Shown: positions 12,554 through 28,126, counted from the stretch's first letter. The stretch is 28,129 nucleotides of DNA from Spirochaetaceae bacterium (GCA_003246505.1 QKAI01000268.1:1-28129); one strand, 5' to 3'. Notes: generated by a model from the sequence alone, not told the origin. Program-made: numbers and translations.

Positions 12554-12565
12554 AGGCTCCTCGCG

Positions 12566-12593
12566 TGAAAATACTTTCATGAAAGTACTTTCA
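12566..12593. promoter_or_regulatory. Two abutting 14-bp operators, TGAAAATACTTTCA and TGAAAGTACTTTCA
   Basis: The second copy (12580-12593) is a perfect palindrome. Together they cover the predicted transcription start of the lacI-SBP-permease operon. Confidence 0.8.
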
Positions 12594-12599
12594 TGAAAC

Positions 12600-12628
12600 A
12601 TATTACCCTCACTTTCACCATCTGTCAA
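12600..12628 (-). promoter_or_regulatory. Sigma70 promoter TTGACA-N17-TAATAT of the lacI/CUT1 operon
   Basis: Consensus -35 at 12628-12623, 17-nt spacer, -10 at 12605-12600. Confidence 0.75.
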
Positions 12629-12662: not shown

Positions 12663-12699
12663 TTGTCCGTTTTGTATTAATGTTTTATTATCATACAAT
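12663..12699 (+). promoter_or_regulatory. Promoter TTGTCC-N17-TATTAT of the FadR-type gene, overlapped by operator ATTATCATACAAT (12687-12699)
   Basis: The operator is the reverse complement of ATTGTATGATAAT and overlaps the -10, consistent with autorepression. Confidence 0.7.
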
Positions 12700-12702
12700 G
12701 GG

Positions 12703-13422
12703 GTGGGTGACAGGGTGGCGAAAATCAGACAGAAGACAGTAGTCGAGCAGGTTATGGAGCAGATCAAGGGATTGATCGCTTCGGGCAAATACAAGCCGGG
12801 GGATAAACTGCCCACGGAACATGAACTGGCGGAAAAGTTCGGGATCGGCCGCTCTTCCATCCGGGAGGCTATAAAAATTTTCAATTACCTGGGCGTCCTC
12901 AAATCCAAGGCCGCCAAGGGAACCTTTCTTTCCGACCGGGCGAATATTTCCGCGGAAGCCCTCTCCTGGTCCATTCTCCTGGGAAAGGATGAACAGCAGG
13001 AGCTGATCGAAACCCGGGGGGCCATAGAGCTCTGGAGCATCATCACCCTTACCGGACTCTTTCAGAACAATCCGGTCAAGTGCACCCCCATACTGGATGA
13101 GCTGCAGGTACAGGTCGACCTGATGAAGCAGGGCATCGCCGACGGGGAGCTCGAGAAGCTGGTGGAAGCGGATTACGCCTTCCACAACATCATCGTGAAG
13201 AGCACGGAGAACAGCCTTTTCTACTCCATATACAAAACGCTCAAGTCGTTCATGTACGAAGAGATCATACAGTCCCAGAACGATTATACCGATCCTGGGA
13301 TGATCGTTTCCGAGCACCAGAGCATCATCAATACGATCCGGTCGGGGGATATCAACCAGTCCGTGAAGACATTCAGCTCCCACATAGAGAATATCGAGAA
13401 CCGCCTGAAGATCCGGGCCTAG
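12703..13422 (+). CDS. GntR-family, FadR-subfamily transcriptional regulator (wHTH + FCD)
   Basis: YKPGDKLPTEHELAEKFGIGRSSIREA...GKGTF-like AAKGTF; FCD motifs ADYAFHNII, NSLF and EH..II. The start could be GTG 12703 or GTG 12715. Confidence 0.92.
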   Translation: MGDRVAKIRQKTVVEQVMEQIKGLIASGKYKPGDKLPTEHELAEKFGIGRSSIREAIKIFNYLGVLKSKAAKGTFLSDRANISAEALSWSILLGKDEQQELIETRGAIELWSIITLTGLFQNNPVKCTPILDELQVQVDLMKQGIADGELEKLVEADYAFHNIIVKSTENSLFYSIYKTLKSFMYEEIIQSQNDYTDPGMIVSEHQSIINTIRSGDINQSVKTFSSHIENIENRLKIRA

Positions 13423-13430
13423 GAGGGGGG

Positions 13431-13871
13431 ATGATTCTGGTCAGCGCCTGCCTGGCGGGAATCGCCTGCCGCTACAACGGGTCAGGGGCGGTCGATGAAC
13501 TTGTCCTCGCCCTGGTGCGGGAGGGGAAGGCCCTGCCCCTGTGCCCGGAAATTCTGGGGGGACTCCCCGTTCCCCGTACCCCCTGCGAGATCGTCCGTCG
13601 AGGGGGCGACTCCCTTGCCATTGCCGAGGAAAACGGCACGGACCGTACGGGCGCCTTTCTAGAGGGGGCGAGGAAGACCGCGGAGATCTGCCGCATCGCC
13701 GGAATAGGGGAGGCGATTCTCAAGTCGGGAAGCCCCTCATGCGGTTCGGATTGGGTCTATGACGGAACATTCTCGGGAAAGCACGTCCCCGGCCGGGGCG
13801 TGACGTCGGATCTTCTTCTTAAGGAGGGGATCCGGGTTTACTCGGAAAAAGGATGGAGGGAGAAGAAGTAA
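13431..13871 (+). CDS. DUF523 / 2-thiouracil desulfurase (TudS/YbbK)-family protein
   Basis: ILVSACLAG..CRYNG, CPE..GGLP.PR, LKSGSPSCG, G.GVT..LL; GGAGG RBS overlapping the upstream stop. Confidence 0.85.
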   Translation: MILVSACLAGIACRYNGSGAVDELVLALVREGKALPLCPEILGGLPVPRTPCEIVRRGGDSLAIAEENGTDRTGAFLEGARKTAEICRIAGIGEAILKSGSPSCGSDWVYDGTFSGKHVPGRGVTSDLLLKEGIRVYSEKGWREKK

Positions 13872-13940
13872 CACTTCCCCTCCCTCCGATATGAAAAACT
13901 ACCCTGCTGCTATGAGGGAGATTAGAACCTGAGCCGCCGG

Positions 13941-14834
13941 TCAGATGCCCGTATGCTTCTTAATATAGGCCCGGGCGTTTTTCGCGTAGACGAAGGGATT
14001 GGCCTTGGCCGGATCCTGCTCCGCTTCCACCACCATCCAGCCTTCGTAATTATTCTCATCCAGAATGGCGAAAAGGGAGGGGAAGTCCACACTGCCGTCT
14101 CCGGGGACGGTGAAGACGCCCGCCCTGACCGCATCCAGGAAGGAGGAGTCCTTCGCCTTTACCTCGGCGAAGACATCCTTTCTCATATCCTTGAGATGCA
14201 CATGGCCGACGCGGGAAATATACTTTTTGAGAGCCGCCACGGGATCCTCTTCGGAGAAGGAGAAATGGCCCGAATCGAACAGGAGGTAGACCTTGTCCGG
14301 ATCGGTGTCGTTAAGGAAGCGGTCCACCTCTTCCATGGTCTGGATGCCCGTGCCCATGTGGTGGTGGAAGGCGAGCTTCATCCCCTCACTTTTTGCTATG
14401 GCTCCCAGTTTGTTCAGCCCGTCGCAGACCGCTTTGAATTCATCCTTCGTAAATACGGCCTTACCGGAAAATACGGATTTCTTCAGGTCCCCCTGGCAGG
14501 AGCGGGTCTGCTCGGAGGGGCCGATGACGTCGGCGCCCATGGCCTTGAGGAACATGAGCTGTTCCCTGAAATCCTTCTCCACTTCCCCGTAGGGCTTGCT
14601 GGCCAGGAAGGAGCTGTACCACTGGTTGCAGATCTGAATGCCCCGGACCTCCAGCATCGGCTTCAGCACCGCCGGATCCTTGGGGTATTTGCTTCCCACC
14701 TCCGAACCGGTGTAGCCGGCCAGAGCCATCTCGCTGACGCACTGCTGGAAGGAGTTCTCCTTCCCCAGGTCGGGCATGTCGTCGTTGGTCCATCCTATGG
14801 GAGCCATCGCCAGTTTGACCTTATTCTTATCCAT
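13941..14834 (-). CDS. iolE: Myo-inosose-2 dehydratase
   Basis: APIGWTNDDMPDLG; FHHHMGT; LLFDSGH; HVHLKD; FTVPGDG; WMVVEAEQDP. Confidence 0.95.
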   Translation of the reverse strand: MDKNKVKLAMAPIGWTNDDMPDLGKENSFQQCVSEMALAGYTGSEVGSKYPKDPAVLKPMLEVRGIQICNQWYSSFLASKPYGEVEKDFREQLMFLKAMGADVIGPSEQTRSCQGDLKKSVFSGKAVFTKDEFKAVCDGLNKLGAIAKSEGMKLAFHHHMGTGIQTMEEVDRFLNDTDPDKVYLLFDSGHFSFSEEDPVAALKKYISRVGHVHLKDMRKDVFAEVKAKDSSFLDAVRAGVFTVPGDGSVDFPSLFAILDENNYEGWMVVEAEQDPAKANPFVYAKNARAYIKKHTGI

Positions 14835-14899
14835 AATTATCCTCTTTCAGCCCCAGGTTATACCGGGGATATTTTCGTTGTGAACCGGACTCGGGAGAA

Positions 14900-16834
14900 T
14901 CAGTACTGCCGGGCCCTCTTGAGCTCTTCCTTCTGCTCCGCCGTCTTCTGGACAATGGTTTCGCTCTTCGCCACTTCCGCCTGACCGCAGCGCCAGAACC
15001 CCTTGTACCCGTCGGTCATGGTCTTGGGGAGAACCTTCACGTCTATGACCGTGGAGACGGTCTGCCTGGCCGCATCGGCCAGGGCCGCGCGGAGCTCCTC
15101 TTCGGTCTTGGCGGTGTAGGTCTTGCAGCCGTAGCCCTCGCCGATCTTGGCGAAGTCCACGTAGATCAGGTCCCCGTCCAGTTTGCCCGTTTTGCTGTTC
15201 CTATGGCGGAATTCGGTCCCGAAGGTGCCCTGTCCCCGGTCCATCTGCAGGTTGTTGATGCATCCGAACTCGGCGTTGTCGAAGACGACAAGGTTGATCT
15301 TCTTCCCCTCCTGGATGGAGGTGGCCAGTTCGGAATGGAGCATCATGAAGGATCCGTCCCCAAGATAGGTATACACCTCCCTGTCCGGTTCGGCCAGCTT
15401 GGCCCCCAAGGCGGCGCTGACTTCGTAACCCATGCAGGAGTAGCCGTATTCCATGTGGTAGGAGCGGAGGCTCTTCGCCCGGAATACCCTCTGTAGGTCC
15501 CCGGGGAGGGAACCGGAGGCGCCCACCACGATGGCGTTCTTATCCACAACCTCATCCAGAATTCCCAGAATCCGGGTCTGTGTCAGTTTCGTCCCCAGGG
15601 CTTTGCTGTACTCTTCCAGGGCCGATGTCAGGCCGTCCCGGATTTCGGGCACGAAGCCGGGGCCGGTGTATTCCAGGGAGAAGAGACGGTTAAGCTCCCT
15701 GTCCCATTCCTCCCTGGCCGCTTTGATCTCCGTGGTGTAGGCGGACTTGTAGCCCTCCTTCTTCAGGGTCTCCCGAATGGCGGCAAGGGCCGTCTTCGCA
15801 TCGCAGGTGACCCGCACCGCATCCATCTTGTAGGAGTCGAAGGAGGCCACATTGATGTTGATGAAATCCACGTTCGGGTTCTGGTAAAGCCACTTGGAGG
15901 CGGTGGTGAAGTCGGTGTAGCGGGTCCCTACCCCTATGACCAGGTCGGTCTCCTGTCCCAGGGTATTGGCGGCGAGACAGCCCGTGGTGCCCACGCCCCC
16001 CAGGTTCAGGGGATGGGAGTAGAGGGTGGCGCTCTTGCCCGCCTGGGTTTCGGCGTAGGGGATGTTGAACTCCTCGCAGAATTTGAGCATCTCCTCCGCC
16101 GCTTCGGAGTAGCGCACGCCCCCTCCGCAGATGAGCATGGGCTTTTTCTTGGATTTGATCATCCTTACCGCTTCCCGGACCATGGCGTCGGTGGGGGCGG
16201 TCCTTTCCAGGCGGTGAACCCGCTTCTGGAAGAAATATTCCGGATAGTCGTAGGCCTCGCCCTGCACGTCCTGGGGAAGGCAGACCGCCACGGCCCCCGT
16301 ATTGGCCGGATCGGTGAGGGTCCTCATGGCGCCGATCATGGCGGACATGAGCTGCTCCGGCCGGTTGATCCGGTCCCAGAATTTGCAGACCGGCCGGAAG
16401 GCGTCGTTGGTGGTGAGGGTCAGGTCGTGGAACTGCTCCATCTGCTGCAGAACCGGGTCGGGCTGGCGGGTGGCGTAGGTGTCGCCGGGCAGAAGAAGCA
16501 CGGGGATGCGGTTGGCCGTGGCCGTGGCCGCCGCGGTGACCATGTTGGCCGCGCCGGGGCCGACCGAGGAGGTGCAGGCGTAGATCTGCCTTCTGTGATT
16601 CTGCTTGGCGAATCCCATGGCCGCGGCGGCCATGCCCTGCTCGTTCCGTCCCTGGTGGACGATAAGATCGCCCGGATCCTCTTCCAGGGCCTGTCCCAGG
16701 CCCACCACGTTCCCGTGGCCGAAGATGGTGAAGATACCCTTGACGAATTTGTGCTCTTCCCCGTCGAATTCCAGATACTGCTGGTTCAGAAATTTCACCA
16801 GCGCCTGGGCTACGGTCATTCTTATGGTTTTCAT
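14900..16834 (-). CDS. iolD: 3D-(3,5/4)-trihydroxycyclohexane-1,2-dione acylhydrolase (ThDP-dependent)
   Basis: [10 protein letters not shown]; IFGHGNVVG; RNEQGMA; [11 protein letters not shown]; PDPVLQQ; [11 protein letters not shown]; ThDP motif GDGSFMM...N. Confidence 0.96.
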
Positions 16835-17646
16835 TATTTAACTTCCTTTCCGTGTTTTAATTCGGGCCAGATGACAACATCCGGCTCCTTCAGCCATTCA
16901 TGCTCTTTGACGAAATACCTGGTGGTGGGGAGCCACCGGTCGTTCTCCAGGTGGGGGATCATCCAGATGTAGTACATGGCGTATCCCGCCCCGGCCACCT
17001 GGGAGTGGGTTCGGTCCGGCACGATGAGGCAGGTATCCCCGTTCTTGACGAAATGGGGATCCTCATCGATCAGGGAGACGCCGAAGCCGCAGTCGGGAAA
17101 GTGGCGGTAGTGGTAGATCTCCGGCTGGGGATGATGGTGGGGCGGGTAGCTGGACCATTTCCCCGGGTGGTTGATCACCTCACCCAGAACCATGTTGGAT
17201 TCGGGAGCGATCACCCCGTCGAAGACGGTCCTGACCGTTCTCTTCGCCGTATCGTTGAGGATCCCCCCGCCGAAAATATCGGAGCGGATATCCTCCTGCC
17301 GGTAAAACCGGGGAGCGAACTCCCGGGGATTCTTCTTTTTTTCCACCGCGATTTCCGAGTCCTCCGCCGCAATGATGGTCACGGGAATATTCCGGGGGAC
17401 ATGGAGGACCACGGGGTTTTCCTCAAAGCAGGACCGGCGGACCGCCTCTTCCGTCTTCCCGTCCCATTTGAACTGAACCCGGCCGCCCATGAGGAGCCAG
17501 GCCCTCTCCTTGCCCTCCTGGCAGAGCCAGGTCTCGCCCTTCTTCAGCCGGAGAATTCCGAAATCCAGGAGCATTTCCGAATGGATGCCCTCCTCTTCGG
17601 TGATTACCGTATATCCGGTTTCCCATATCTGATTCTTTATAATCAC
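16834..17646 (-). CDS. iolB: 5-deoxy-glucuronate isomerase (KduI/IolB family)
   Basis: GEV...[16 protein letters not shown]; YAMYYIW; GGAGG RBS with GTG start; TAATG overlap with iolD. Confidence 0.88.
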
Positions 17647-17672
17647 TTAAGCCTCCCTCGATCGGTGGTTTT

Positions 17673-17701
17673 ATTATATTGTAGTATTGTCTGATAATCA
17701 A
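17673..17701 (-). promoter_or_regulatory. Promoter TTGATT-N17-TATAAT of iolB-iolD-iolE, with operator ATTGTCTGATAAT (17686-17698) in the spacer/-35
   Basis: Consensus -10 at 17678-17673, -35 at 17701-17696; the operator matches the copies at 12687, 23541, 28058 and 28114. Confidence 0.8.
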
Positions 17702-17739
17702 GTGTTATTTTTCAAAAATCCGTCCCCGGAGGGGCACTG

Positions 17740-18762
17740 TCAGGTGGACTCCCGGGGGGACAGGTGGGGGGCGATGCTGATCCGGGTCCTGGGCAGCTCC
17801 TCCCCGTTCCTTTTCTTCTGGATCTGATGGATCAGGCGCTGGCAGGAGAGGTGGGCCAGCTCATCCCGGGGCTGGTGAACCGAGGTCAGCCCGGGGTTGC
17901 TGTAACGGGCCAGCTCGCTGTCGTCGTATCCCGCCACGGCGATGTCCCCGGGAATGGCGACCCCCCTGTCCTCCAGGGCCCGCATGGCCCCCAGGGCCAT
18001 GAGATCGTTGCAGCCGAAGAGGGAGTCATACCGGCCGATGCCGTCCCCCAGGCCGGACAGGGCCTCCTTGGCCGATTCGAAGGTGGAGTCGCTGTAGAGC
18101 CGTTCCACCCTGACCCCCGCATCGTCCATCACTTCGCAGAAGCCCTTCTCCCTCAGGCGGAATTCAAGGTGCTCCTGGGTCTTCGCCAGCAGGAGGGGAT
18201 TCCTCCGCCCCTTCTGCAGGAAATGGGAGGCCACCTGCCTTCCCCCCTCCCTGTGGTCGGTGAAGATCACCTCCTGGTTTTTCGTGGCCTCGTCCGGGGG
18301 GTAGTGGAGGAAGACGGAGGGGACCCCATGGAGATTGAGGTACTCGATGCTCTCCTTCTTCAGATGCTCGATGAGAATGAGAAACCCGTCCACCTTGTTG
18401 CGGGATACGAGGCGGATGATGTTGTTGCCCCGGTCTTCCTGATAGGTCTGGTGGGTGATGATGAGGTCCAGATCGGCCTCTTCCAGGGTCTTGCGCAGGC
18501 TGTTGAGGAGCATGCCGTGGTAGACGTTGACGCTGACCATATGGTAGTTCTCCGGCAGGACGATGGCCACCGTACCCACCTGGCTGGTGATCATGCTCCG
18601 GGCGCCCGCATTGAATTCAAAACCCAGGTCACCGGCAATGCGGTTGATTCTCTCCCTCGTCTTGTAAGCCACCAGGGGACTGTTGTTCAGACTCCTTGAT
18701 ACGGTGGCGAAACTGACTCCGGCGATTTCCGCAATGTCCTTAATGGTGACCTGGCTGCCCAT
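17740..18762 (-). CDS. LacI-family repressor, last gene of the importer-iolG operon
   Basis: VTIKDIAEIAGVSFATVSRSLN; hinge region FNAGARSM; IAVAGYDDS...LTSVHQP. Confidence 0.93.
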   Translation of the reverse strand: MGSQVTIKDIAEIAGVSFATVSRSLNNSPLVAYKTRERINRIAGDLGFEFNAGARSMITSQVGTVAIVLPENYHMVSVNVYHGMLLNSLRKTLEEADLDLIITHQTYQEDRGNNIIRLVSRNKVDGFLILIEHLKKESIEYLNLHGVPSVFLHYPPDEATKNQEVIFTDHREGGRQVASHFLQKGRRNPLLLAKTQEHLEFRLREKGFCEVMDDAGVRVERLYSDSTFESAKEALSGLGDGIGRYDSLFGCNDLMALGAMRALEDRGVAIPGDIAVAGYDDSELARYSNPGLTSVHQPRDELAHLSCQRLIHQIQKKRNGEELPRTRISIAPHLSPREST

Positions 18763-18771
18763 CTCTCTCTG

Positions 18772-19785
18772 TCAAAACCTTAACTGTTTGTTTAATTCGA
18801 AGGATTCCTTGCACTTGTAGGCGATCTCCGAAACCCGGGTTCCGTCGTAGACCGTGACCCCGGGCTGCCGTCCTTCCAGGATACAATACACAAATTCCTG
18901 AATCTCGTTAATATAGGAGGAACCGAATCTCTCCAGAAAGTTCTCGCTGCACTCCCGGCGGACGCCCCCGTTGTCCAGGATCTCCACCAGATTCTTCTGG
19001 GGGACCGAGGCGATGCGCAGGATGCCCTTCGTCCCGATGATCTCCGTCTCCACGTTGTATCCGTGGGGGGCGGTCCTCCCCGCGAAGAGGAAGACCATGG
19101 CGTCGTTTCCGAACTGCATGAGGCAGGAGACGTTGTCCCCGTCCTTGTACTGTCCGAATTCGGGATGGGCGTAGCATCCGCCCAGGGCGGTGACGGAGAC
19201 GGGCTCCGAGTTCAGGAACCAGCGGGCCAGATCGATGTCGTGGACCGCCATGTCCAGGAACTGCCCCCCCGAATGGCCGGCGAAGGCGATGGCCCCGTCT
19301 ATGAACTTCTCCGGGTCCTGGCTGTAGGAACGGAAGAGAACGGGCTTCCCGATCTCCCCGGCCATCACCTTTTTATGGGCGTACATGTAGGATTCGTCGA
19401 ACCGGCGCATGAACCCCAGCATGAAGACCCTGTCCCCGTGGGCTTCCACCGCCTTCTCCGCCTCCTTGCACTCCTCCACGGTCACCCCCAGGGGCTTCTC
19501 GGAAAAGACGTGCTTTCCCGCGGCCAGGGCGGCGGCGATCTGCTTCGTGTGCAGGCCGGAGGGGGAGGCGAGGCAGACCGCGTCCAGCTCCTCCAGGGCG
19601 ATCATCTCTTCGAAGCTGGAGAACCGGTGCTTCACCCCCAGCCTGTCCGCGGTTCTGTTGAGCAGATCCCCGTTCAGGTCGCAGAGGGCGGTCAGCTCGG
19701 CATGCATGATCTTGGTGGCGATATTCTCCGCATGGGCCAGGCCCAGCCGGCCCAGTCCCACCGATCCGATCCTGATCGTTCTCAT
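18772..19785 (-). CDS. iolG: Inositol 2-dehydrogenase (Gfo/Idh/MocA family)
   Basis: GLGRLG Rossmann motif; GKHVFSEKP; GFMRRFD; DMAVHDID. True start MRTIRIG at 19785; the ORF-track extension to 20427 is an off-frame reading of the permease gene. Isomer specificity (myo/scyllo/chiro) cannot be read from sequence. Confidence 0.8.
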   Translation of the reverse strand: MRTIRIGSVGLGRLGLAHAENIATKIMHAELTALCDLNGDLLNRTADRLGVKHRFSSFEEMIALEELDAVCLASPSGLHTKQIAAALAAGKHVFSEKPLGVTVEECKEAEKAVEAHGDRVFMLGFMRRFDESYMYAHKKVMAGEIGKPVLFRSYSQDPEKFIDGAIAFAGHSGGQFLDMAVHDIDLARWFLNSEPVSVTALGGCYAHPEFGQYKDGDNVSCLMQFGNDAMVFLFAGRTAPHGYNVETEIIGTKGILRIASVPQKNLVEILDNGGVRRECSENFLERFGSSYINEIQEFVYCILEGRQPGVTVYDGTRVSEIAYKCKESFELNKQLRF

Positions 19786-19790
19786 GGCGA

Positions 19791-20810
19791 TTAACCCTTC
19801 TTGGCGTTCTTGCGCATATCGATGATAACGGCTACCACGATGATCACACCTTCGGTGACCTGCTGCCAGTAGGCGTCGACTCCCAGAAGGGTCAGGCCGT
19901 TTCTCATGACCGAGAGAACCAGGGCCCCCACGAAGGCGCCCCAGATGGTTCCGATTCCCCCGGAATGGCTGGTACCGCCGATGGTGGTGGCGGCGATGGC
20001 GGTCAGCTCGTAACCGGTGGCGGCGCCGGGATGGACCGATCCTACCCGTCCGGCGAAAACGATGGCCGCCAGACCGGCGAGGAGCCCCGAGTAGGCGTAG
20101 ATGGCGATGAGGTTCCGGCCCACGTTGACCCCGGACACCTCCGCCGCCTTGATGTTGCCCCCGATGGCGTAGACGCTCTTGCCGAAGCGGGTCATGTCCA
20201 GGAGGACGTAGCTGACGCCGATCATGAGAAAGTAGATCAGAACGGGGATGGGGAGCCAGCCGAAGAGCTTGCCCCCCAGGACGGTCAGGGAGTCGGTGAG
20301 GGTGCTCACGGGCTTGCCGTCCGAGTAGATCAGGGCCATGCCCCGGGCCACGGTCATCATGCCCAGGGTGGCGATGAAGGCGGGGATGTTGGTTTTGGCT
20401 ATCAGGGCTCCTGAGATACCCCCGCACAGGGCGCCCACGGCCAGGGCGGCCAGGATGGGGACGATGACCGGCATGACGGGCAGGTTGGGAAAGAATTTGC
20501 CCGTGGCGTCGGCGGTCTGGGCCAGGGACGCGGCGATGACGCCGGAGAGGGCCAGAACGGAGCCGACGGAGAGGTCGATTCCCTTGGAAATGATAACGAA
20601 GGTGAGTCCCAGGGCCATGATTCCGAAAATGGAGGTCTGGGTCAGGACGTTAAAAAGGTTGGAGCGGCTCAAAAAGGCCGGCTCCAGAATGCTGATGCCT
20701 ATGATCATGATGAACAGAACGAAGACGATACCGTACTTCTGCAGGATCTGCTGGGTCTTCTGGCTCCGCTCTTTTTTGCCGGGCTGGGCTTTTTCCGCAA
20801 TGGTTGACAT
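19791..20810 (-). CDS. CUT2 ABC transporter permease (RbsC-like), probably for inositol
   Basis: GIDLSVGS; IPAFIATLGMM; RFGKSVYAIGGN..AA.VSG; YELTAIAA..IGGTS..GG.G. Confidence 0.92.
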   Translation of the reverse strand: MSTIAEKAQPGKKERSQKTQQILQKYGIVFVLFIMIIGISILEPAFLSRSNLFNVLTQTSIFGIMALGLTFVIISKGIDLSVGSVLALSGVIAASLAQTADATGKFFPNLPVMPVIVPILAALAVGALCGGISGALIAKTNIPAFIATLGMMTVARGMALIYSDGKPVSTLTDSLTVLGGKLFGWLPIPVLIYFLMIGVSYVLLDMTRFGKSVYAIGGNIKAAEVSGVNVGRNLIAIYAYSGLLAGLAAIVFAGRVGSVHPGAATGYELTAIAATTIGGTSHSGGIGTIWGAFVGALVLSVMRNGLTLLGVDAYWQQVTEGVIIVVAVIIDMRKNAKKG

Positions 20811-20814
20811 TGTT

Positions 20815-22329
20815 TTACTCCTCTCCTACAGCTTTACCCGTGGCGTAGGACATTAATTGTTCTTGGGTAAGATCGGGCGTATTGTCCACGACGGCCGTGA
20901 CACGGCCCTCGTGCATGACCATTATCCGGTCACTCATGCCCATGACTTCCGGCAGTTCCGAGGAAATCATGACGATCGATTTCCCCTCCCCGGCCAGACG
21001 GGTGATCAGCCTGTGAATCTCCGACTTCGCCCCCACGTCGATGCCCCTCGTCGGCTCATCGAGAAAGAGAATGTCCGGATTGGTCATAAGCCACCGGGCG
21101 ACCAGAACCTTCTGCTGGTTTCCTCCGGAGAGGTTCTGCACCTTCTGCATCAGGCTGGGGGTCTTCACCTGAATCTTCTTGACGTAATCGTCGCACTCGC
21201 TCTTAAGCGATTTGTAACGGATCAGGCCCACCCTGTTCAGGTATTTGGGGATATTGGTGATAGCCATGTTCAACCGCACCGAGAGCATGGGGAAGATTCC
21301 CGACATGCGCCGGTCCTCGGTGAGCAGAGCCATATGCCTGGCGATGGCGTCCCGGGGGGAGTTGATGGTCACCTCCTCCCCGTCGATGAGAATCTGGCCG
21401 GAAACCTTGGACCGGATGCCGAAGATCGTCTCTATGACCTCCGTCCTACCCGAACCGATAAGGCCGGCCACTCCCAGGATTTCGCCCCTTCTCACGTTAA
21501 AGGAAACGTCCCTGAAGAGCCGCTGGTGGGTCAGGTTGCGGACTTCCAGTTTCACTTCCCCTATCTCGCAGGGGACCTTGGGGAACATCTCGTCCACGTT
21601 GCGGCCCACCATCATGTTGATGAGCCTGTCCACGATGAGCTTGTCCGTGTCCTCCACGCCGATATAGGTCCCGTCCCGGTAGACGGTGATCCTGTCGGTA
21701 ATCTCATAAACCTCATCCAGCTTATGGGAGATGTATATGATGCTCTTGCCCTGCGCCTTGAGCTTGCGCATGATGGTGAAGAGCTGCTTGACTTCCTTAT
21801 CTGTCAGTGCCGATGTGGGCTCGTCCATGATGATCAGTTTGGAATCGTAGGAGATGGCCTTGGCGATCTCGATCATCTGCATCTTGGCTACGGTCAGCTG
21901 AGCCATCTCTGTCCGGGGATCCTCATCCAGATCGATCTCCTTCAGGACTTCGATGCTCATATCATACATTTTTTTATGGTCCACGAGACCGAACTTGTTC
22001 AAAGGCTCTCTTCCGAGCCAGATATTTTCCATGATAGGTCTGTGAAGTATGGGGCTCAATTCCTGATGTATCATGGAAATGCCCATATGAAGAGCCTGGG
22101 ACGTATCGTAATTCTCCCGAACCTCGCCATCGTACATTATGGTTCCCGATGTGGGACTGTGTACGCCGGCCAGACAGTTCATAAGAGTCGATTTGCCCGC
22201 TCCGTTTTCTCCCATAAGCGCATGGATCTCTCCCTGTTTCACCTTAAGTTCAACACCTTTGAGAGCCTTGACACCGGGGAAGTTCTTTACAATATCCTGC
22301 ATCTGCAGGAGATAGTTTTCCTCAGCCAT
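20815..22329 (-). CDS. CUT2 ABC transporter ATP-binding protein with two NBDs (RbsA/MglA-like)
   Basis: GENGAGKST; IIMDEPT; LSGGNQQK; LFLDEPTRGIDVGAK. Start MAEENYLL at 22329 behind GGAGA; the extension to 22389 crosses hairpins. Confidence 0.94.
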   Translation of the reverse strand: MAEENYLLQMQDIVKNFPGVKALKGVELKVKQGEIHALMGENGAGKSTLMNCLAGVHSPTSGTIMYDGEVRENYDTSQALHMGISMIHQELSPILHRPIMENIWLGREPLNKFGLVDHKKMYDMSIEVLKEIDLDEDPRTEMAQLTVAKMQMIEIAKAISYDSKLIIMDEPTSALTDKEVKQLFTIMRKLKAQGKSIIYISHKLDEVYEITDRITVYRDGTYIGVEDTDKLIVDRLINMMVGRNVDEMFPKVPCEIGEVKLEVRNLTHQRLFRDVSFNVRRGEILGVAGLIGSGRTEVIETIFGIRSKVSGQILIDGEEVTINSPRDAIARHMALLTEDRRMSGIFPMLSVRLNMAITNIPKYLNRVGLIRYKSLKSECDDYVKKIQVKTPSLMQKVQNLSGGNQQKVLVARWLMTNPDILFLDEPTRGIDVGAKSEIHRLITRLAGEGKSIVMISSELPEVMGMSDRIMVMHEGRVTAVVDNTPDLTQEQLMSYATGKAVGEE

Positions 22330-22342
22330 GTTTTCTCCGATA

Positions 22343-22430
22343 ACCGGAGCGGGAGAATTCCCGCTCCGGTGGGTAACGCGGATTCCCATCTATCCTATGG
22401 TTCCCCGGAGGGAACCCCTATGGGGAATCC
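22343..22430 (-). other. Two stem-loops between the SBP and ATPase genes
   Basis: Perfect 12-bp stem ACCGGAGCGGGA/TCCCGCTCCGGT (22343-22370). Nested hairpin 22380-22430 with outer GGATTCCC/GGGAATCC and inner GGTTCCC/GGGAACC arms, giving a C(UCCG)G loop on the mRNA strand. Confidence 0.7.
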
Positions 22431-22438
22431 TTTGATTT

Positions 22439-23389
22439 CTACTGGTAATCGGCCAGATTTTCCGGGGTAATGAGAACGAAGGGGATCCATACGAGGGAAA
22501 CGACCTGCTCGCCCTTGAGAACCTTGTGGATCAGCTCTGCGGAACCCTTGCCCTGACCTACGGCGTCCTGAAGGACCGTAGCCGCCAGAGAGCCGTTTCC
22601 TACGGCGACCTTAGCATCGGGGATGGCGTCAACGCCCATGACGGGGATGTCGGTCCGGCCGGCGGCCTTGAGGGCTTCCACGGCACCCAGGGCCATTTCG
22701 TCGTTATTGGCGCAGATACCCTTAAGGTCGGAGCCGTATGCGGTGAGCCAGTTCTCCGTAATGGTCATGCCCTGGTCTCTCTGCCAGTTGCCGGTTTCCT
22801 TGGCAAGGATCTTGATGCCGGGGAACTTGGCCTTGGCGGTAACTTCGTTACCCTCGGTTCTCTTCAGGGCGCCTTCGTTGTCGAGCTTGCCCATGAGGAT
22901 GGCCACGCCGCCCTTACCGTCAAGAAGCTTGCCCATGTACTCCATCTGCTGGGTACCGGCAATGATCTCCTGGGAACCGACGTAATAGACGTTGGCGGGG
23001 AGTTCCTTCTCCGCATAGGGGTTTCTGTTGACGAAACAGAGGGGAACGTTGGATTCGGCGGCAGCCTTAACAATGGGACCCATGGCGCTCGTGTCAACGG
23101 GAACCACGATAAGGGCATCAATTTTCTGGGCGAGAAGGGTGTTGACCAGATCCTGCTGGCGGATAACGTCCTCCTGCGCGTCCTGAAGAACCAGTTCTAC
23201 ATTGGCGACGCCGGCAAAATACTCCTTGGCCGCATCCATAACGTAGGTCTGAAAGGTGTCGTTAAAGTTGTTACATACGTAACCAACTTTGAAACTGTCC
23301 TTGGCCCCTCCCTTATCCGCCGATCCGTTGGCAAAAGCCACGGTAACGGCCAGAAGGGCCAGCAGTGTTACGAACAATACCTTTTTCAT
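22439..23389 (-). CDS. CUT2 sugar-binding protein (RbsB-like), probably inositol-binding
   Basis: GGAGGT RBS, then MKKVLFVTLLALLAVTVAFANG; DAQED..RQ; IDALIVVPVD; YVGS; NNDEMALGA; GVDA; ATVLQD. Confidence 0.9.
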   Translation of the reverse strand: MKKVLFVTLLALLAVTVAFANGSADKGGAKDSFKVGYVCNNFNDTFQTYVMDAAKEYFAGVANVELVLQDAQEDVIRQQDLVNTLLAQKIDALIVVPVDTSAMGPIVKAAAESNVPLCFVNRNPYAEKELPANVYYVGSQEIIAGTQQMEYMGKLLDGKGGVAILMGKLDNEGALKRTEGNEVTAKAKFPGIKILAKETGNWQRDQGMTITENWLTAYGSDLKGICANNDEMALGAVEALKAAGRTDIPVMGVDAIPDAKVAVGNGSLAATVLQDAVGQGKGSAELIHKVLKGEQVVSLVWIPFVLITPENLADYQ

Positions 23390-23419
23390 AAAATACCTCC
23401 ATAGATTTCGCTTGCATAA

Positions 23420-23435
23420 TTGCAAACGTTTACAA
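23420..23435. promoter_or_regulatory. LacI-type operator TTGCAAACGTTTACAA (proximal)
   Basis: 16-bp near-perfect palindrome with a central CG, at the predicted transcription start. Confidence 0.8.
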
Positions 23436-23442
23436 TAGTGTT

Positions 23443-23472
23443 ATTATCCTCCCTGTTTCCGGAATCTGTCAA
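23443..23472 (-). promoter_or_regulatory. Promoter TTGACA-N18-GATAAT of the importer-iolG-lacI operon
   Basis: -35 at 23472-23467, -10 at 23448-23443. Confidence 0.65.
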
Positions 23473-23540
23473 CAAAAAACTAAATAAAATTAAGTAAGAT
23501 CATTTAAAGTATTATATAATAAACAAATATAGCTAGTCAG

Positions 23541-23553
23541 ATTGTCTGATAAA
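23541..23553. promoter_or_regulatory. FadR-type operator ATTGTCTGATAAA
   Basis: The 12-bp core is identical to the iolB and transaldolase copies; it is adjacent to a possible second promoter (CTGACT-N18-TATAAT, 23540-23511). Confidence 0.7.
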
Positions 23554-23620
23554 AGAATGTCGGATTGTAAGATTTTTTTTAAAAAATAGGTAACGAAATA
23601 TCGATAAAAAAAGCTCTAAA

Positions 23621-23634
23621 TACAAACGTTTACA
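23621..23634. promoter_or_regulatory. Auxiliary LacI-type operator TACAAACGTTTACA
   Basis: Shares CAAACGTTTACA with the proximal site and lies exactly 200 bp from it. Confidence 0.65.
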
Positions 23635-23740
23635 GAATTCCTCCTCCCCGGGCTGCCTAGGGAATAATAACAGGGACGGGATCATGGGCATGTCCCGCAG
23701 AACAGGGGTGAGGCGGTTGGTGTTTTGTGGTGATAAAGAG

Positions 23741-23787
23741 GGAACCGGTCCGGGTGTTGCGATTGGATAAGGTCCCGGACCGGTTCC
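23741..23787. repeat. Perfect 14-bp inverted repeat with a 19-nt loop
   Basis: GGAACCGGTCCGGG (23741-23754) / CCCGGACCGGTTCC (23774-23787). Confidence 0.75.
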
Positions 23788-23959
23788 GAAGCGATTGAAT
23801 TATATGGAAACTATTTTTACTTCTTTCTGCTGATCCAGAGGGAGGCGTCCGAAAAGACCCCGGGGGTTTTGTCCGCGGGGATGTTCTCTCTGAGGCTCCC
23901 TCTCTTCTGTCTTTCACTTTTCCGGCGCTGCCGCCGTTCTCTAGTTTTTCTCAAATTCA

Positions 23960-25555
23960 TCATAGGGGCATGTTCCCGTGTTTCTTGGAGGGCCTGTCCT
24001 CCCGCTTGTCCGCGATGATCTCCAGGGACCGGATCAGCTCCTTCCTGGCCGATTCGGGGGAGATCACGTCGTCCACGATTCCCAGGGAGGCGGAGGAGAA
24101 GGGGTTCATGAATTTCCTCTGGTACTCGTGCATCTTGATTTCCTTGATCAGGTCGTGATCCTTGGCGGACTGGATCTCATTCCTGAAGATGATGTTGGCC
24201 GCCCCGGAGGCGCCCATGACGGCGATCTCCGCGATGGGCAGGGTCAGGACCCGGTCGTAGCCCAGGGCCCGGGAGGCCATGCCGATGTAGGCGCCCCCGT
24301 AGGCCTTTCTGAGGACCAGGGCGATCTTGGGCACCGTGGCCTCCGCAATGGCGTAGAGCAGCTTGGCCCCGTGGCGTATGATGCCCCCGTACTCCTGCTC
24401 CGTCCCGGGCATGTAGCCGGGCACGTCCACCAGGGAGATCACCGGGATGGAGAAGGCGTCGCAGAAGCGGACGAACCGGGCCGCCTTGTCCGAGGAGTCC
24501 CGGTCCAGGGCCCCGGCGAAGACCATGGGCTGGTTCCCGATGATCCCCACGGAACGGCCGGCCAAGCGGGCGAAGCCCACCACCATGCTCCGGGCGAAGT
24601 CCCTGTGGACCTCCAGGAAACTCTCCCCGTCGAAGAGAAGGGCGATGATCTCCCTCACGTCGTAGGCCCGGGTGGACTCCCCGGGGATGATCCTGAGGAT
24701 CTCCCCGGTCTCCCTGTTCGGGTCGTCGGTGCACTCCAGCCGGGGAGGGGCCTCCCGGTTGGAGGAGGGCAGGTAGGAGAGCAGTCTCTTCACGAGCCGG
24801 AAGCACTCCTCCTCGCTGGCGCAGTGGAAGTGGACGTTGCCGCTTTTGCTGGCATGGGCCAGGGCCCCGCCCAGGTCCTCGTGGCTAACCTCTTCCCCGG
24901 TCACCGCCTTGATGACCTCCGGCCCGGTGATGTACATATGGCTGGTTTTGTCTATCATGAAGACGAAGTCGGTCAGGGCCGGGGAGTAGGCCGCGCCCCC
25001 CGCGCAGGGCCCCATGATCAGGCTGATCTGGGGGATGACCCCCGAGGCCAGGATGTTCTCCCGGAAAATGCTGCCGTAGCCCTCCAGGGACATGACCCCC
25101 TCCTGGATCCGGGCCCCCCCGGAATCGTTGATCTGGATGAAGGGTTTCCCCGTCTTGAGGGCCAGGCGCTGGGTGGCGGCGATCTTGGAGGCGTGCTGCT
25201 CCCCCAGGGAGCCCCCCAGGACGGTGAAGTCCTGGGAGGAGAGCCAGATCTGCCTCCCCTCGAGGAGGGCGCTGCCCGTGATGACCCCGTCCCCGGATAT
25301 CTTCTTGCTGTCCATGCCGAAGTCGTCGATGCGGCTCAGCTCGTAGGGATGGTTCTCCACGAAGCTGCCCTCGTCGGTGAGGAGCCGGATCCTTTCCCGG
25401 GCCGTATGCTTGCCCTTGGCCTTCTGCCTGGCCTGGCGGTCCTCCCCGCCCCCGGCCAGCATGGCCTTGCGCATCGTCTCAAGAAGCTTCAGGCTCTCCC
25501 TGTGGCTGTAGGGCAGTTCGGGGGACGGGTCAGTTCCCTTTTCTGACGTGCTCAT
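23960..25555 (-). CDS. Acyl-CoA carboxyltransferase subunit (PccB / (methyl)malonyl-CoA decarboxylase alpha / transcarboxylase 12S family)
   Basis: GKHTARERI; GDGVITG; QDFTVLGGSLGE; DSGGARIQEG; GPCAGGAAYSPALTDF; DVPGYMPG; RKAYGGAY; C-terminal KKHGNMPL. GAGGAG RBS lies inside the upstream gene (26-nt overlap). Confidence 0.92.
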   Translation of the reverse strand: MSTSEKGTDPSPELPYSHRESLKLLETMRKAMLAGGGEDRQARQKAKGKHTARERIRLLTDEGSFVENHPYELSRIDDFGMDSKKISGDGVITGSALLEGRQIWLSSQDFTVLGGSLGEQHASKIAATQRLALKTGKPFIQINDSGGARIQEGVMSLEGYGSIFRENILASGVIPQISLIMGPCAGGAAYSPALTDFVFMIDKTSHMYITGPEVIKAVTGEEVSHEDLGGALAHASKSGNVHFHCASEEECFRLVKRLLSYLPSSNREAPPRLECTDDPNRETGEILRIIPGESTRAYDVREIIALLFDGESFLEVHRDFARSMVVGFARLAGRSVGIIGNQPMVFAGALDRDSSDKAARFVRFCDAFSIPVISLVDVPGYMPGTEQEYGGIIRHGAKLLYAIAEATVPKIALVLRKAYGGAYIGMASRALGYDRVLTLPIAEIAVMGASGAANIIFRNEIQSAKDHDLIKEIKMHEYQRKFMNPFSSASLGIVDDVISPESARKELIRSLEIIADKREDRPSKKHGNMPL

Positions 25556-26912
25556 CGAATAACTCCTCGTCCGAGGGCTGTCTGTTCGCGATGGGAGAGG
25601 ACACCCAGGTCGTGTTGATCAGGTGCTTCCAGGTGATGTTCTCGCTGGAAATGTTCCCTCCCCAGGTCCCGCAGCCCAGGGTCAGGGTGGTGGGCATGCC
25701 GTTGGTCCAGGAACCGCTGTTGGCCAGGCAGTGGGGCTGGTTCACCATGACCCGGGACACCTTCACCTGTTCCGCCAGCTGGAGGATCCGCTCCCTCCTG
25801 GTGGTGTGGATGCCGCAGGAGTGGCCCGCCCCGGAATAGGCGGTGATTCTGTTGACCATCCGCACGGCCTCGTTGAAATCGCTCCATTTGTACAGGGCCA
25901 TGACCACGGAGAGCTTCTCCCCGCTGAAGAGGTAGCCCTCTCCCGCGCCGGTCTCCTCCACGAAGAAGAAGCTTTTCCCTTCGGGGAGAGCGATGCCGGC
26001 GATGCCCGCGATCTTCGGGGCCGGCTGGGCCACCACGTCCCGGTTGAGGGTATGCCCGTCGGGCCACAGGGCCTTCTCCAGCTTACCCTTCTCCTCGGCG
26101 CTGCAGAGGTAGCCCCCTTCCGCCTCCAGGGCCTTCACCAGATCCCCGTAGATGGTGTCCTGGGCCAGGCAGGAGTTCTCCGCGGAGCAGCTGGTGGCCA
26201 TGTCGAAGGTCTTGGACCGCTTGATTTTGTCGGCCACCACCTTCATGTCCTGGGTATCGTCCACGATGGTCACCGCGTTGCCCGCGCCCACCCCGTAGGC
26301 GGGGGTGCCGCTGGAGTAGGCCGTCTTCACAAGGCCGGCGCCGCCCGTGGCCAGGATCAGGTCGCACTTGGCCATGATCTCCTGGGAATTCTCCATGGTG
26401 ACCTGGTCCACGTGGATGATCAGGTCCTCCGGGTAGCCCAGCTTCTTCAGGACCCCTCTCATCTTGTTGACCACCATCTCGTTCGTTTTTACGGAGCGGG
26501 GATGGGGGGCCAGGATAATGGCGTTCCTGCCCTTGAGGGCGCTCATGGACTTGAGGACCGGGGTCGCCTCGTTGTTGGTGGTGGGGACCATGGCCCCGAT
26601 GACGCCCACCGGCTTGGCGATCTTGATCAGCCCCAGGGCGGGATCCTCTTCGATGATGCCGGCGGACTTCTTGCCCTTCATGTCGAACCATCCGGCCCTG
26701 ACCTTGTTCATCATCTTGCCGTGCTTGCTCTCGAAGCAGCCCATGCGGGACTCCTCCACGGCCATGGTCGCCAGTTCGGTGACGAAGGGCTCCTGAACGC
26801 ACACCCAGGCGATGGTCTGGCAGATCTCGTCCACCCTCTCCTGTGAGAGGAACTCTATCTCTTTCTGGGCCTTCCGGGCCCGGTCTATCAATCCGTTTAC
26901 GTAATCCGACAT
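25530..26912 (-). CDS. CoA-acylating aldehyde dehydrogenase (AdhE-N/EutE/SauS-like)
   Basis: KPVGVIG..VPTTN; KGRNAII.APHP; LATGG.GLVK.AYSSG.PAYGVGAGN; catalytic Cys in ATSCSAEN; GEKLS; GHSCGIH; TLGCGTWGGN. Confidence 0.92.
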   Translation of the reverse strand: MSDYVNGLIDRARKAQKEIEFLSQERVDEICQTIAWVCVQEPFVTELATMAVEESRMGCFESKHGKMMNKVRAGWFDMKGKKSAGIIEEDPALGLIKIAKPVGVIGAMVPTTNNEATPVLKSMSALKGRNAIILAPHPRSVKTNEMVVNKMRGVLKKLGYPEDLIIHVDQVTMENSQEIMAKCDLILATGGAGLVKTAYSSGTPAYGVGAGNAVTIVDDTQDMKVVADKIKRSKTFDMATSCSAENSCLAQDTIYGDLVKALEAEGGYLCSAEEKGKLEKALWPDGHTLNRDVVAQPAPKIAGIAGIALPEGKSFFFVEETGAGEGYLFSGEKLSVVMALYKWSDFNEAVRMVNRITAYSGAGHSCGIHTTRRERILQLAEQVKVSRVMVNQPHCLANSGSWTNGMPTTLTLGCGTWGGNISSENITWKHLINTTWVSSPIANRQPSDEELFDEHVRKGN

Positions 26913-26933
26913 TTTTCCTATCCTTTCTCTATC

Positions 26934-28013
26934 TTACTTCTTATCCGGGTTGGGCAGCATGAAATCTTTGATGATCCCCAGAAGCTCATGGTAGCCGTCG
27001 ATGAATCCCCTGAGGGTCCGGGCGGTGGCGCCGTAAAAATCGAATTCCTCGGGCTTCATCGTGTAGGCCCCGTAGGCCCTGTTGAAATCGGGGAACTTAT
27101 CCTGCAGCTCCTTGAGAACGGCCGGATCGACGGGCCTGTCTATGGTCACTTCCACGGGAACGTCGCTGCCGTTGAACTTCTTCTGCCAGTCGCAGGGTAT
27201 GGTCTGAACGATATCGTCCCCTATGATCTGGGACCAGTGGAGATGGTTTCTGTAGGCGGCGGAGAGAAGCCGGGTCCGGAAACCCTTTTCCTTATATATT
27301 TTGTAGGCGTTCTTGAAGGCGGCCACTCCGGCCCAGTCCAGGACGCCGGGGGTCGTCACGATGCCCTGCTTGCCCGCCACGACCTTGAGCCAGTCATCCA
27401 GACGTCCGACCATGATCGTGCAGACCGGGGTCATTTTTGAAACGTCCTTTCCTTCCGCCTCCCTTCTCTTCAGGCCCCGTTCCACCGCTTCCGCCACGGC
27501 CACAGCCTGGGGTACGGTGAAACAGACGGTGGCGTTGATGTTGACGCCCCGGTAGGTGGCTTCTTCGAAGGCTTTGATTCCCGCGGCGGTGGTGGGCATT
27601 TTGACCATCATGTTAGGGGCCAGGGTACTGAACTTGACCGCCTGCTCGGCCATGGCGCCGGCGTTGCGGTAGAGCTGGGCATTGGTCTGGATGGATATAC
27701 GGCCCTTGAGTCCCTTCTCCCTGTCAAAGACGGGTTTGAGGATTTCCGCTCCCTTGACGGCCATCTCTTCGATGAGCTTCCAGGCGACTTCCACTTCCCC
27801 CGCTTCGGGCATCTCCGCGATAATTTCCTTGATTCTGCCTTCCCAGAGGGGCATCTCCTTCTTAAGTACGTTGAGAACGATTACCGGATTGGTGGTGGCT
27901 CCCGTGGCGCCGTGGCCTATGGAATATTCCAGTTCCTCCACGGAACAGGAATCATTCCACACCTCCATATTGCATATGGAAACGGATTTCCTAATAGGAC
28001 TCATATCACCCAT
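26934..28013 (-). CDS. Transaldolase-family protein with a non-canonical active-site signature
   Basis: WNDS; GATTNP; Schiff-base Lys in MVKMPTT; INATVCF; MVGRLDDW; AAYRN; AAGGAG RBS. Confidence 0.88.
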   Translation of the reverse strand: MGDMSPIRKSVSICNMEVWNDSCSVEELEYSIGHGATGATTNPVIVLNVLKKEMPLWEGRIKEIIAEMPEAGEVEVAWKLIEEMAVKGAEILKPVFDREKGLKGRISIQTNAQLYRNAGAMAEQAVKFSTLAPNMMVKMPTTAAGIKAFEEATYRGVNINATVCFTVPQAVAVAEAVERGLKRREAEGKDVSKMTPVCTIMVGRLDDWLKVVAGKQGIVTTPGVLDWAGVAAFKNAYKIYKEKGFRTRLLSAAYRNHLHWSQIIGDDIVQTIPCDWQKKFNGSDVPVEVTIDRPVDPAVLKELQDKFPDFNRAYGAYTMKPEEFDFYGATARTLRGFIDGYHELLGIIKDFMLPNPDKK

Positions 28014-28057
28014 ATCTTATCTCCTTAATGATTATCACTGCTTGGACGGATTGTCTA

Positions 28058-28070
28058 ATTGTATGATAAT
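28058..28070. promoter_or_regulatory. FadR-type operator ATTGTATGATAAT upstream of the transaldolase operon
   Basis: Exact reverse complement of the site at the FadR gene's own promoter. Confidence 0.75.
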
Positions 28071-28113
28071 CTGTTATCAAGTATTTGTAAAGAGGAAATT
28101 TTGAAAAAATCAT

Positions 28114-28126
28114 ATTATCAGACAAT
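28114..28126. promoter_or_regulatory. FadR-type operator ATTATCAGACAAT, second copy
   Basis: Exact reverse complement of the iolB site ATTGTCTGATAAT. Confidence 0.75.

Follow-up and report, generated by a model that had tools for sequence, protein, structure and literature searches.

GntR regulators of the FadR subfamily bind dyad operators of the consensus T.GT-N(0-3)-AC.A, and the palindromic operators of PdhR from Escherichia coli and LldR from Corynebacterium glutamicum (CGL2915, PDB 2di3), ATTGGTnnnACCAAT and TGGTCTGACCA, are of the T.GT-N3-AC.A type. Both proteins join a winged helix-turn-helix (wHTH) to an all-helical FCD domain with an Asp/His/His/His set, repress carboxylate metabolism, regulate their own synthesis, and act from operators that overlap core promoter elements. 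A comparable system is predicted in a 28,129-bp stretch of Spirochaetaceae DNA (the window, which is the entire contig C327 of G000, a genome of 552 contigs, 3.59 Mb, 58 % GC and 81 % completeness), where a box resembling these operators, ATTGTCTGACAAT, stands five times among genes of inositol catabolism (iol) and a transaldolase (TAL) operon. On sequence grounds it is highly probable that this box is the operator of the FadR-subfamily regulator encoded at 12703-13422, and that the functional element spans about 21 bp; its likely role is repression at the promoters of the regulator gene itself (gntR), of iolBDE and of the TAL operon. The likeness to PdhR and LldR has its limits, as full-length similarity is only distant (NCBIfam scores of 73-79 bits versus cut-offs of 311-330), and the half-sites ATTGTC/ATTATC, the phased third half-site and the iol/TAL regulon set the system apart.

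NanR of E. coli, a FadR-subfamily repressor responding to sialic acid, with a Zn-binding FCD and a sugar-acid-like ligand, provides the regulator's best NCBIfam hit (84 bits to a subfamily model, below its cut-off). Three dimers bind its operator cooperatively, at phased GGTATA repeats of the same number (PMC8012715), a precedent for more than two half-sites; multi-dimer binding in our system is putative. However, NanR cooperativity involves direct repeats and a 32-residue N-terminal extension (PMC8012715), whereas the core in the window is an inverted repeat with one extra half-site, and the protein lacks a long N-terminal extension.

The repressors of inositol operons, collectively IolR, are of the DeoR type in Bacillus and of the RpiR type in Sinorhizobium and Salmonella, and that of C. 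glutamicum has a C-terminus of the HutC/UTRA type. The inducer of the Bacillus subtilis protein is a late intermediate, the 6-phosphate of 2-deoxy-5-keto-gluconate (DKG), which parallels the effector proposed below. A preceding first-pass annotation of the window had stressed that its regulator is unlike the DeoR- and RpiR-type IolR; so it is, but the departure is less exceptional than implied, since GntR-type (C. glutamicum, PMC9603128) and ROK-type (Thermotoga, PMC3750489) representatives are already known. Repression of iol operons is generally relieved by a pathway intermediate (PMC9603128), and our regulator would resemble IolR in its presumed role, in having boxes at the iolB and importer/iolG promoters, and in being encoded within the iol cluster. 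It differs in combining GntR with FCD, in having the TAL operon as its conserved core target, and in sharing the cluster with a second regulator of the LacI family. A local repressor with a site for autoregulation and an operator at every catabolic promoter is also the architecture of regulogs reconstructed by comparative genomics (RegPrecise-style, for instance the LacI-family study PMC4052901); here the regulator family, the motif and the lineage (Spirochaetia) are other ones, and the lower pathway lacks IolC, IolJ and IolA. Our literature search found no report of an FCD-type IolR, of a TAL-dependent inositol pathway or of inositol catabolism in spirochaetes. The regulation as such is conventional, that of a local FadR-subfamily repressor of the ordinary sugar-acid switch type.

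The box, its promoters and its conservation

Searching the whole window for ATTGTMTGATAAW gave five exact matches, at 12687 (-), 17686 (+), 23541 (+), 28058 (+) and 28114 (-), and none in 100 dinucleotide-preserving shuffles. A scan of the 552 contigs of the 81 %-complete genome found no exact match outside these five, so that the word is not one common in AT-rich intergenic DNA genome-wide. A relaxed consensus of eight variants (M at position 6, Y at 10, W at 12) returned four exact and nine one-mismatch hits in G000, compared with none and two for the control, the same consensus reversed and not complemented. All five copies are intergenic by the gene map, and four of them share the same orientation relative to the downstream gene. 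The first-pass annotation had assigned each copy to the upstream region of one of four transcription units, and both the positions and this assignment are borne out. Units and predicted operators are as follows; operators carry no strand.

12703-13422, + strand: GntR+FCD regulator of the FadR subfamily (Pfam GntR 1.1e-16, FCD 6e-14)
13941-17646, - strand: iolB-iolD-iolE transcription unit (iolE 13941-14834, iolD 14900-16834, iolB 16834-17646; Pfam KduI/IolB, TPP enzyme, AP_endonuc_2)
17740-23389, - strand: importer operon, by Pfam (LacI_B 17740-18762, iolG 18772-19791, ABC permease 19791-20810, ABC ATPase 20815-22389, substrate-binding protein (SBP) 22439-23389)
23817-28013, - strand: TAL operon, by Pfam (transaldolase 26934-28013, acylating aldehyde dehydrogenase (ALDH) 25530-26912, carboxyltransferase 23960-25555, 48-aa open reading frame (ORF) 23817-23963)
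12679-12699: gntR autoregulatory operator, core 12687-12699 and half-site AATGTT at 12679-12684; kept directly upstream of orthologues
17678-17698: iolB operator, core 17686-17698 and half-site ATTGTA at 17678-17683
23541-23553: importer-region GntR box, the weakest copy, ending in A and without a third half-site
28050-28070: proximal TAL operator, core 28058-28070 and half-site ATTGTC at 28050-28055; invariant in six genomes of two genera
28106-28126: distal TAL operator, core 28114-28126 and half-site AAAATC at 28106-28111

The pseudo-palindrome noted earlier is real: ATTGTC and GATAAT, set around a central T, match their own reverse complement at 10 of 13 positions, the halves being ATTGTC and ATTATC. 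Its given length of 13 bp describes the core but not the whole, because an additional half-site (at most one mismatch) lies exactly 8 bp from one half in 50 of 79 unique sites gathered from the window and its relatives, offsets of 5-7 and 9-12 bp accounting for only 2-6 cases each. It is present at four of the five copies in the window. From this phasing the functional element should measure about 21 bp, and the predicted operator is thus the inverted repeat ATTGTM-T-GAYAWT together with a third half-site 8 bp away. About 20 % of the orthologous sites read ATTGTMTGACAAT, fitting T.GT-N3-AC.A, and most others, including all five window copies, read GATAAT, in which A.A replaces AC.A on one side.

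The promoter-like sites near the boxes are predictions from consensus scans. At gntR, the box covers the -10 (12686-12691) of TTGTCC-N17-TATTAT (12663-12691); at iolB, it covers the -35 and spacer of TTGATT-N17-TATAAT (17701-17673); and at TAL it contains the -10 of TTTACA-N17-TATCAT (28091-28063). Overlap with a -10 or -35 had been claimed before for two promoters; the overlap holds, but there are three. Positions over core elements at three promoters make repression, and autorepression at gntR, the likely mode of control. The distal TAL operator is centred 56 bp upstream of the proximal one and has counterparts at -115 in G001 and at -106 in G024; since the upstream neighbour of TAL in G001 is co-directional, the distal box would also serve TAL and not an unseen divergent gene.

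Those relatives that bear names are uncultured Spirochaetia, metagenome-assembled genomes (MAGs) labelled Oceanispirochaeta and Sediminispirochaeta. Orthologues of the regulator share 85-91 % identity within the genus, 77-81 % in a second genus, and 40-60 % across the class and in some Oscillospiraceae. Nearly all of them, at identities of 41-91 %, have a box just upstream of their own start, at 12-170 bp. In a class sample of 151 genomes (orthologues defined by E<=1e-50), the 37 with an orthologue contain on average 2.2 exact boxes (reversed control 0.35), and the other 114 contain 1.0 (control 0.46). Counted by hand from the tables, at least 18 of the 36 orthologue-bearing genomes other than our own have an exact box no more than 400 bp from the orthologue. 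Of 14 relatives that possess a TAL orthologue, 11 have the regulator, and a box (at most one mismatch, within 400 bp upstream) precedes TAL in 10 of these and in none of the other three.

Phylogenetic footprinting, which the first-pass annotation had proposed, shows the box as an invariant island. Upstream of TAL (alignment A1, six genomes of two genera) the invariant positions are CTTTACAAA (the -35), the 13-bp box 11 nt further on and a GACAAT half-site, and upstream of iolB (alignment A2, eight genomes) they are the TCAGACA core, in both cases against a mean column identity of about 55 %. G001, a complete genome of the same genus in one 5.6-Mb contig, has a syntenic cluster with exact boxes before gntR, iolB and TAL, and three of its four exact hits fall inside this cluster. 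The second genus has a rearranged cluster, with the TAL-ALDH-carboxyltransferase unit apart and gntR divergent from an SBP-ABC-iolG-lacI-iolBDE string, and it retains boxes before TAL, gntR and iolB. In remoter genomes, the box lies in the intergenic stretch from which gntR and TAL directly diverge; G025, of family f2, has exact boxes at both iolB and TAL. The proposed tie between the TAL operon and the iol genes is hence upheld by shared boxes, and more strongly by gene order, as TAL heads a TAL-iolB-iolD-iolE string in L045 and adjoins iolG in L048 and L069. Footprinting, autoregulatory sites, co-occurrence with the regulator and genome-wide rarity together strongly favour the earlier view that an FCD-type GntR owns the box and controls a regulon of four transcription units.

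The regulator and its possible signal

The regulator is a protein of 239 amino acids with a GntR-type wHTH (PF00392, E 1.1e-16, residues 15-75) and an FCD domain (PF07729, E 6e-14, residues 101-229). Its true start is probably GTG 12715, as orthologue alignments begin at residues 4-8. Pfam gave only GntR, FCD and a sub-threshold HTH_41, with no homology to DeoR-, RpiR- or ROK-type IolR. It aligns over its full length to the FCD structures 2di3, 6az6 and 9jpj. Residues D157, H161, H205, H227, R105 and E109 are invariant in 14 orthologues, and the first four align with Asp/His positions of 2di3 and PdhR, a pattern known from the metal-containing FCD group as described for NanR (PMC8012715). By alignment, then, the regulator carries the metal-site residues of this group (Asp-x3-His, His, His). 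The HTH region of 14 orthologues is 61-94 % identical to the window protein and the FCD 31-80 % (31-49 % in distant orthologues), which fits a shared operator with possibly diverged ligands.

In the mechanism we propose, one dimer, possibly more, would bind the ~21-bp element, and at the gntR, iolBDE and TAL-ALDH-carboxyltransferase promoters binding would cover the -10 or -35 and repress transcription. LacI_B may sense incoming inositol or inosose and open uptake and the first oxidation, and the GntR protein may sense a carboxylate from further down the pathway through its conserved, putatively metal-containing FCD pocket. We favour DKG as this carboxylate, with 5-deoxyglucuronate (5DG) and malonate semialdehyde (MSA) as alternatives; its sensing would derepress iolBDE, the TAL operon and the regulator's own gene. 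DKG is a guess, although the most economical one, since TAL, the core target that is conserved, presumably acts on it. A fuller version, which we put forward tentatively and judge possible at best, is that the regulator senses non-phosphorylated DKG (or MSA) and gates a kinase-free, TAL-dependent lower inositol pathway of anaerobic marine spirochaetes, as the second tier under a DNA-looping LacI-type sensor of inositol and with cooperative, NanR-like binding to three half-sites.

A rather unlikely alternative accepts that the GntR protein binds the box and makes it a PdhR/LldR-like sensor of pyruvate or another small 2-oxo or hydroxy acid. It would then switch carbon flux globally, with the iol and TAL genes as incidental targets, and would not sense an intermediate of the inositol pathway. 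Among named families NanR, LldR, PdhR and GlcC indeed come nearest, and among structures 2di3 (LldR-like) and PdhR (E 1e-12 to 1e-14), but all NCBIfam scores fall far below their cut-offs (84 versus 260, 78.7 versus 311, 72.9 versus 330 and 58.9 versus 301, respectively), those of the three closest, at 73-84 bits, being far under the equivalog thresholds of 260-330. This alternative also has on its side the company which orthologues at 47-57 % identity keep. In Sediminispirochaeta MAGs (L039 at 5267, L041 at 9000), the box lies between an orthologue (56-57 % identity) and a divergent split transketolase, encoded by N- and C-terminal subunit genes, and in Oscillospiraceae MAGs (L057 at 4584 and 9878, L054 at 4435) boxed orthologues (47-48 % identity) flank an E1alpha-E1beta-E2-E3 operon resembling pyruvate dehydrogenase (PDH) or acetoin dehydrogenase, an arrangement which is PdhR-like. 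The FCD is, however, just 34-37 % identical to that of the PDH-linked proteins, with an HTH at 70-72 %, fitting diverged ligands, and in this genus all strong sites but one fall in the iol/TAL cluster. As orthologues carry the same box at transketolase or PDH-like operons, the box stands for a regulator lineage and not for inositol in itself, and the inositol link holds for the spirochaete clades whose iol and TAL genes carry it.

With the FadR-subfamily regulator as the probable owner of the box, the regulon gives independent sequence-level support for grouping the TAL/acylating-ALDH/carboxyltransferase operon with iolG, iolE, iolD and iolB. Given genomes without IolC, IolJ and IolA, it would thereby support a possibly undescribed lower inositol branch in marine anaerobes. 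It also offers an experimental handle in the form of a 239-aa protein, the 21-bp site and three ligands as candidates, with which the true intermediate of the pathway could be identified. In addition, it defines a widespread regulator lineage with a shared operator in Spirochaetia and some Clostridia. We see its main value in corroborating the candidate TAL-dependent lower inositol pathway and in providing a handle on it.

Other readings of the box and the importer promoter

It is very improbable that we are dealing with part of a promoter (of a -10 or extended -10) or with another non-operator signal of co-expressed genes. That four of five copies share an orientation, that TATCAT or TACAAT within the box can act as a -10, and that the TAL footprint also takes in the -35 would suit such a signal; yet the place of the box varies from the -10 (gntR, TAL) through the -35 and spacer (iolB) to far upstream (importer, distal TAL), it has dyad symmetry and a phased third half-site, and from phylum to phylum the word goes with a single regulator lineage, no copy preceding TAL in genomes that lack this regulator. 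Still less credible is binding of the contested element, ATTGTMTGATAAT, by a LacI-family regulator (17740-18762 or 11540-12628). The gene of LacI_B does stand in the cluster, with iolG on one side and iolB on the other, but each of the two LacI proteins has typical palindromes of its own close by (boxes of the AAACGTTT kind at 23424 and 23624 and of the GAAAGTACTTTC type at 12581 and 12638), and box and GntR occur without LacI_B on the contig at L038, L040, L044, L045, L055, L060 and L061.

Two LacI-type palindromes centred on AAACGTTT flank the main promoter of the importer, TTGACA-N18-GATAAT at 23472-23443:

23420-23435, no strand: proximal LacI-type box, TTGCAAACGTTTACAA, just downstream of the importer promoter at the predicted transcription start; position kept in six genomes
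23620-23635, no strand: distal LacI-type box, 200 bp from the proximal one

They keep a distance of 200-205 bp in all six genomes, from two genera (the window, G001 L021+L022 and L034-L037), and such fixed spacing suggests DNA looping by LacI_B. A conserved word, TTTATCGATA, follows the distal box. The GntR box of this region lies between the two LacI boxes, 69 bp upstream of the -35, and is the most degenerate of the five copies; in the relatives it has one or two mismatches and lies 63-72 bp before the -35 in three of five, touches the -35 in a fourth and is lacking in the fifth. We therefore read the control of the cluster as two-tiered, LacI_B acting mainly on uptake and iolG, and the GntR regulator on iolBDE, the TAL operon and its own gene. 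The earlier picture of a four-unit regulon under GntR stands in outline, but it overlooked the in-cluster LacI regulator with its conserved importer operators.

Several observations weigh against our interpretation. The importer box is found ~110 bp upstream of the main transcription start, besides being degenerate or, in one relative, missing. Conservation of the TAL box could partly stem from the embedded -10 hexamer. Genomes scored as orthologue-negative keep a roughly two-fold box excess over the control, so that co-occurrence is not clean; more distant paralogues, candidates that went unscored or incomplete assemblies might account for this. The genomes compared are related and not independent, and counts overstate their independence. 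Boxed orthologues beside transketolase or PDH-like operons mean that a pathway-specific ligand is not guaranteed, and the effector itself is one that we purely infer. Finally, the organism is an uncultured MAG, its sequence being found in DNA metagenome runs only (hydrothermal vent, marine).

Further targets and neighbouring features

The regulon had been described as spanning 15 kb of this contig, which it does, but it probably extends off the contig as well. On contig C525 of G000 (L096), a one-mismatch box, AATGTATGATAAT, at 2154-2166 precedes a divergent gene for an Fe-alcohol dehydrogenase (Fe-ADH; ~2194-3453, +, 419 aa) and sits at about +1, just past a good match to a promoter, TTGCCC-N17-TATACT, as judged by eye. 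G003 has the identical box; at this position G001 has a related palindrome instead, and the second genus a different one. It is a plausible sixth operator; that the enzyme acts as an aldehyde reductase on MSA is speculation. A genome scan for further members, such as a distant biotin carrier, had been proposed. The only site before accB-accC (C406) has two mismatches and is non-significant, with 150 such hits genome-wide. Of the one-mismatch sites, the Fe-ADH site alone was retained as a candidate; several others fall within genes or next to unrelated ones (a sigma-54 activator, DAHP synthase, an MFS transporter, unknowns) and were rejected. The 81 %-complete genome contains three biotinyl/lipoyl proteins, and no OAD_beta (Na+-pump subunit) was found in it.

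G020, G022, G013 and G002 carry paralogous regulators. Some of the extra exact sites in these genomes are intragenic, and others precede MFS or SNF transporter genes and unknown genes. In Oceanispirochaeta, exact boxes lie 30-55 bp upstream of MFS genes outside the cluster (L088, G022:C4:1051605; L083, G020:C2:1651463); these genes may belong to the regulon as additional transporters or may be controlled by paralogous regulators. In G039 (L125, C80, 6277-9184), which has no orthologue, an unrelated GntR (26 % identity) is encoded directly upstream of TAL without a box, which looks like a non-orthologous replacement of the regulator.

Two further genes adjoin gntR:

11540-12628, - strand: LacI_A, LacI-family regulator (ORF)
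13431-13871, + strand: gene of the DUF523 / 2-thiouracil-desulfurase family (Pfam PF04463, 4.8e-41)

Between 12574 and 12653 there are three GAAAG-WW-CTTTC palindromes, two of them abutting, which overlap the LacI_A promoter TTGACA-N17-TAATAT (12628-12600); given this promoter, the real start of LacI_A should be ~30 codons downstream of the ORF start at 12628. The DUF523 gene begins 8 bp past gntR and is probably co-transcribed with it; it has the identical position in G001 and is missing in L031.

Regarding the catabolic genes, NCBIfam equivalog cut-offs are passed by iolE and by iolG (361.7 versus 355), and iolB stays below its own. The nearest model for the ALDH is SauS, sulfoacetaldehyde dehydrogenase (516 bits), and the carboxyltransferase is mmdA-like (727 bits), both below their NCBIfam cut-offs. 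A Shine-Dalgarno sequence and ATG kept in six genomes place the true start of the SBP at ATG 23389. The 48-aa ORF (23817-23963, -) is basic, overlaps the stop codon of the carboxyltransferase (ATGA), and has a C-terminal motif, PGV(F/Y)SDA(S/M)LW(I/V)SRK, kept in G001, L036 and L037; it could encode a small subunit of the decarboxylase/carboxyltransferase complex. On the 3' side of these two genes, a GC-rich inverted repeat of 14 bp with a loop of 18 nt (23740-23787) is likely a terminator between the TAL operon and the importer promoter. Its long loop made the terminator scan overlook it, and in its place G001 has a canonical hairpin followed by a T-run.

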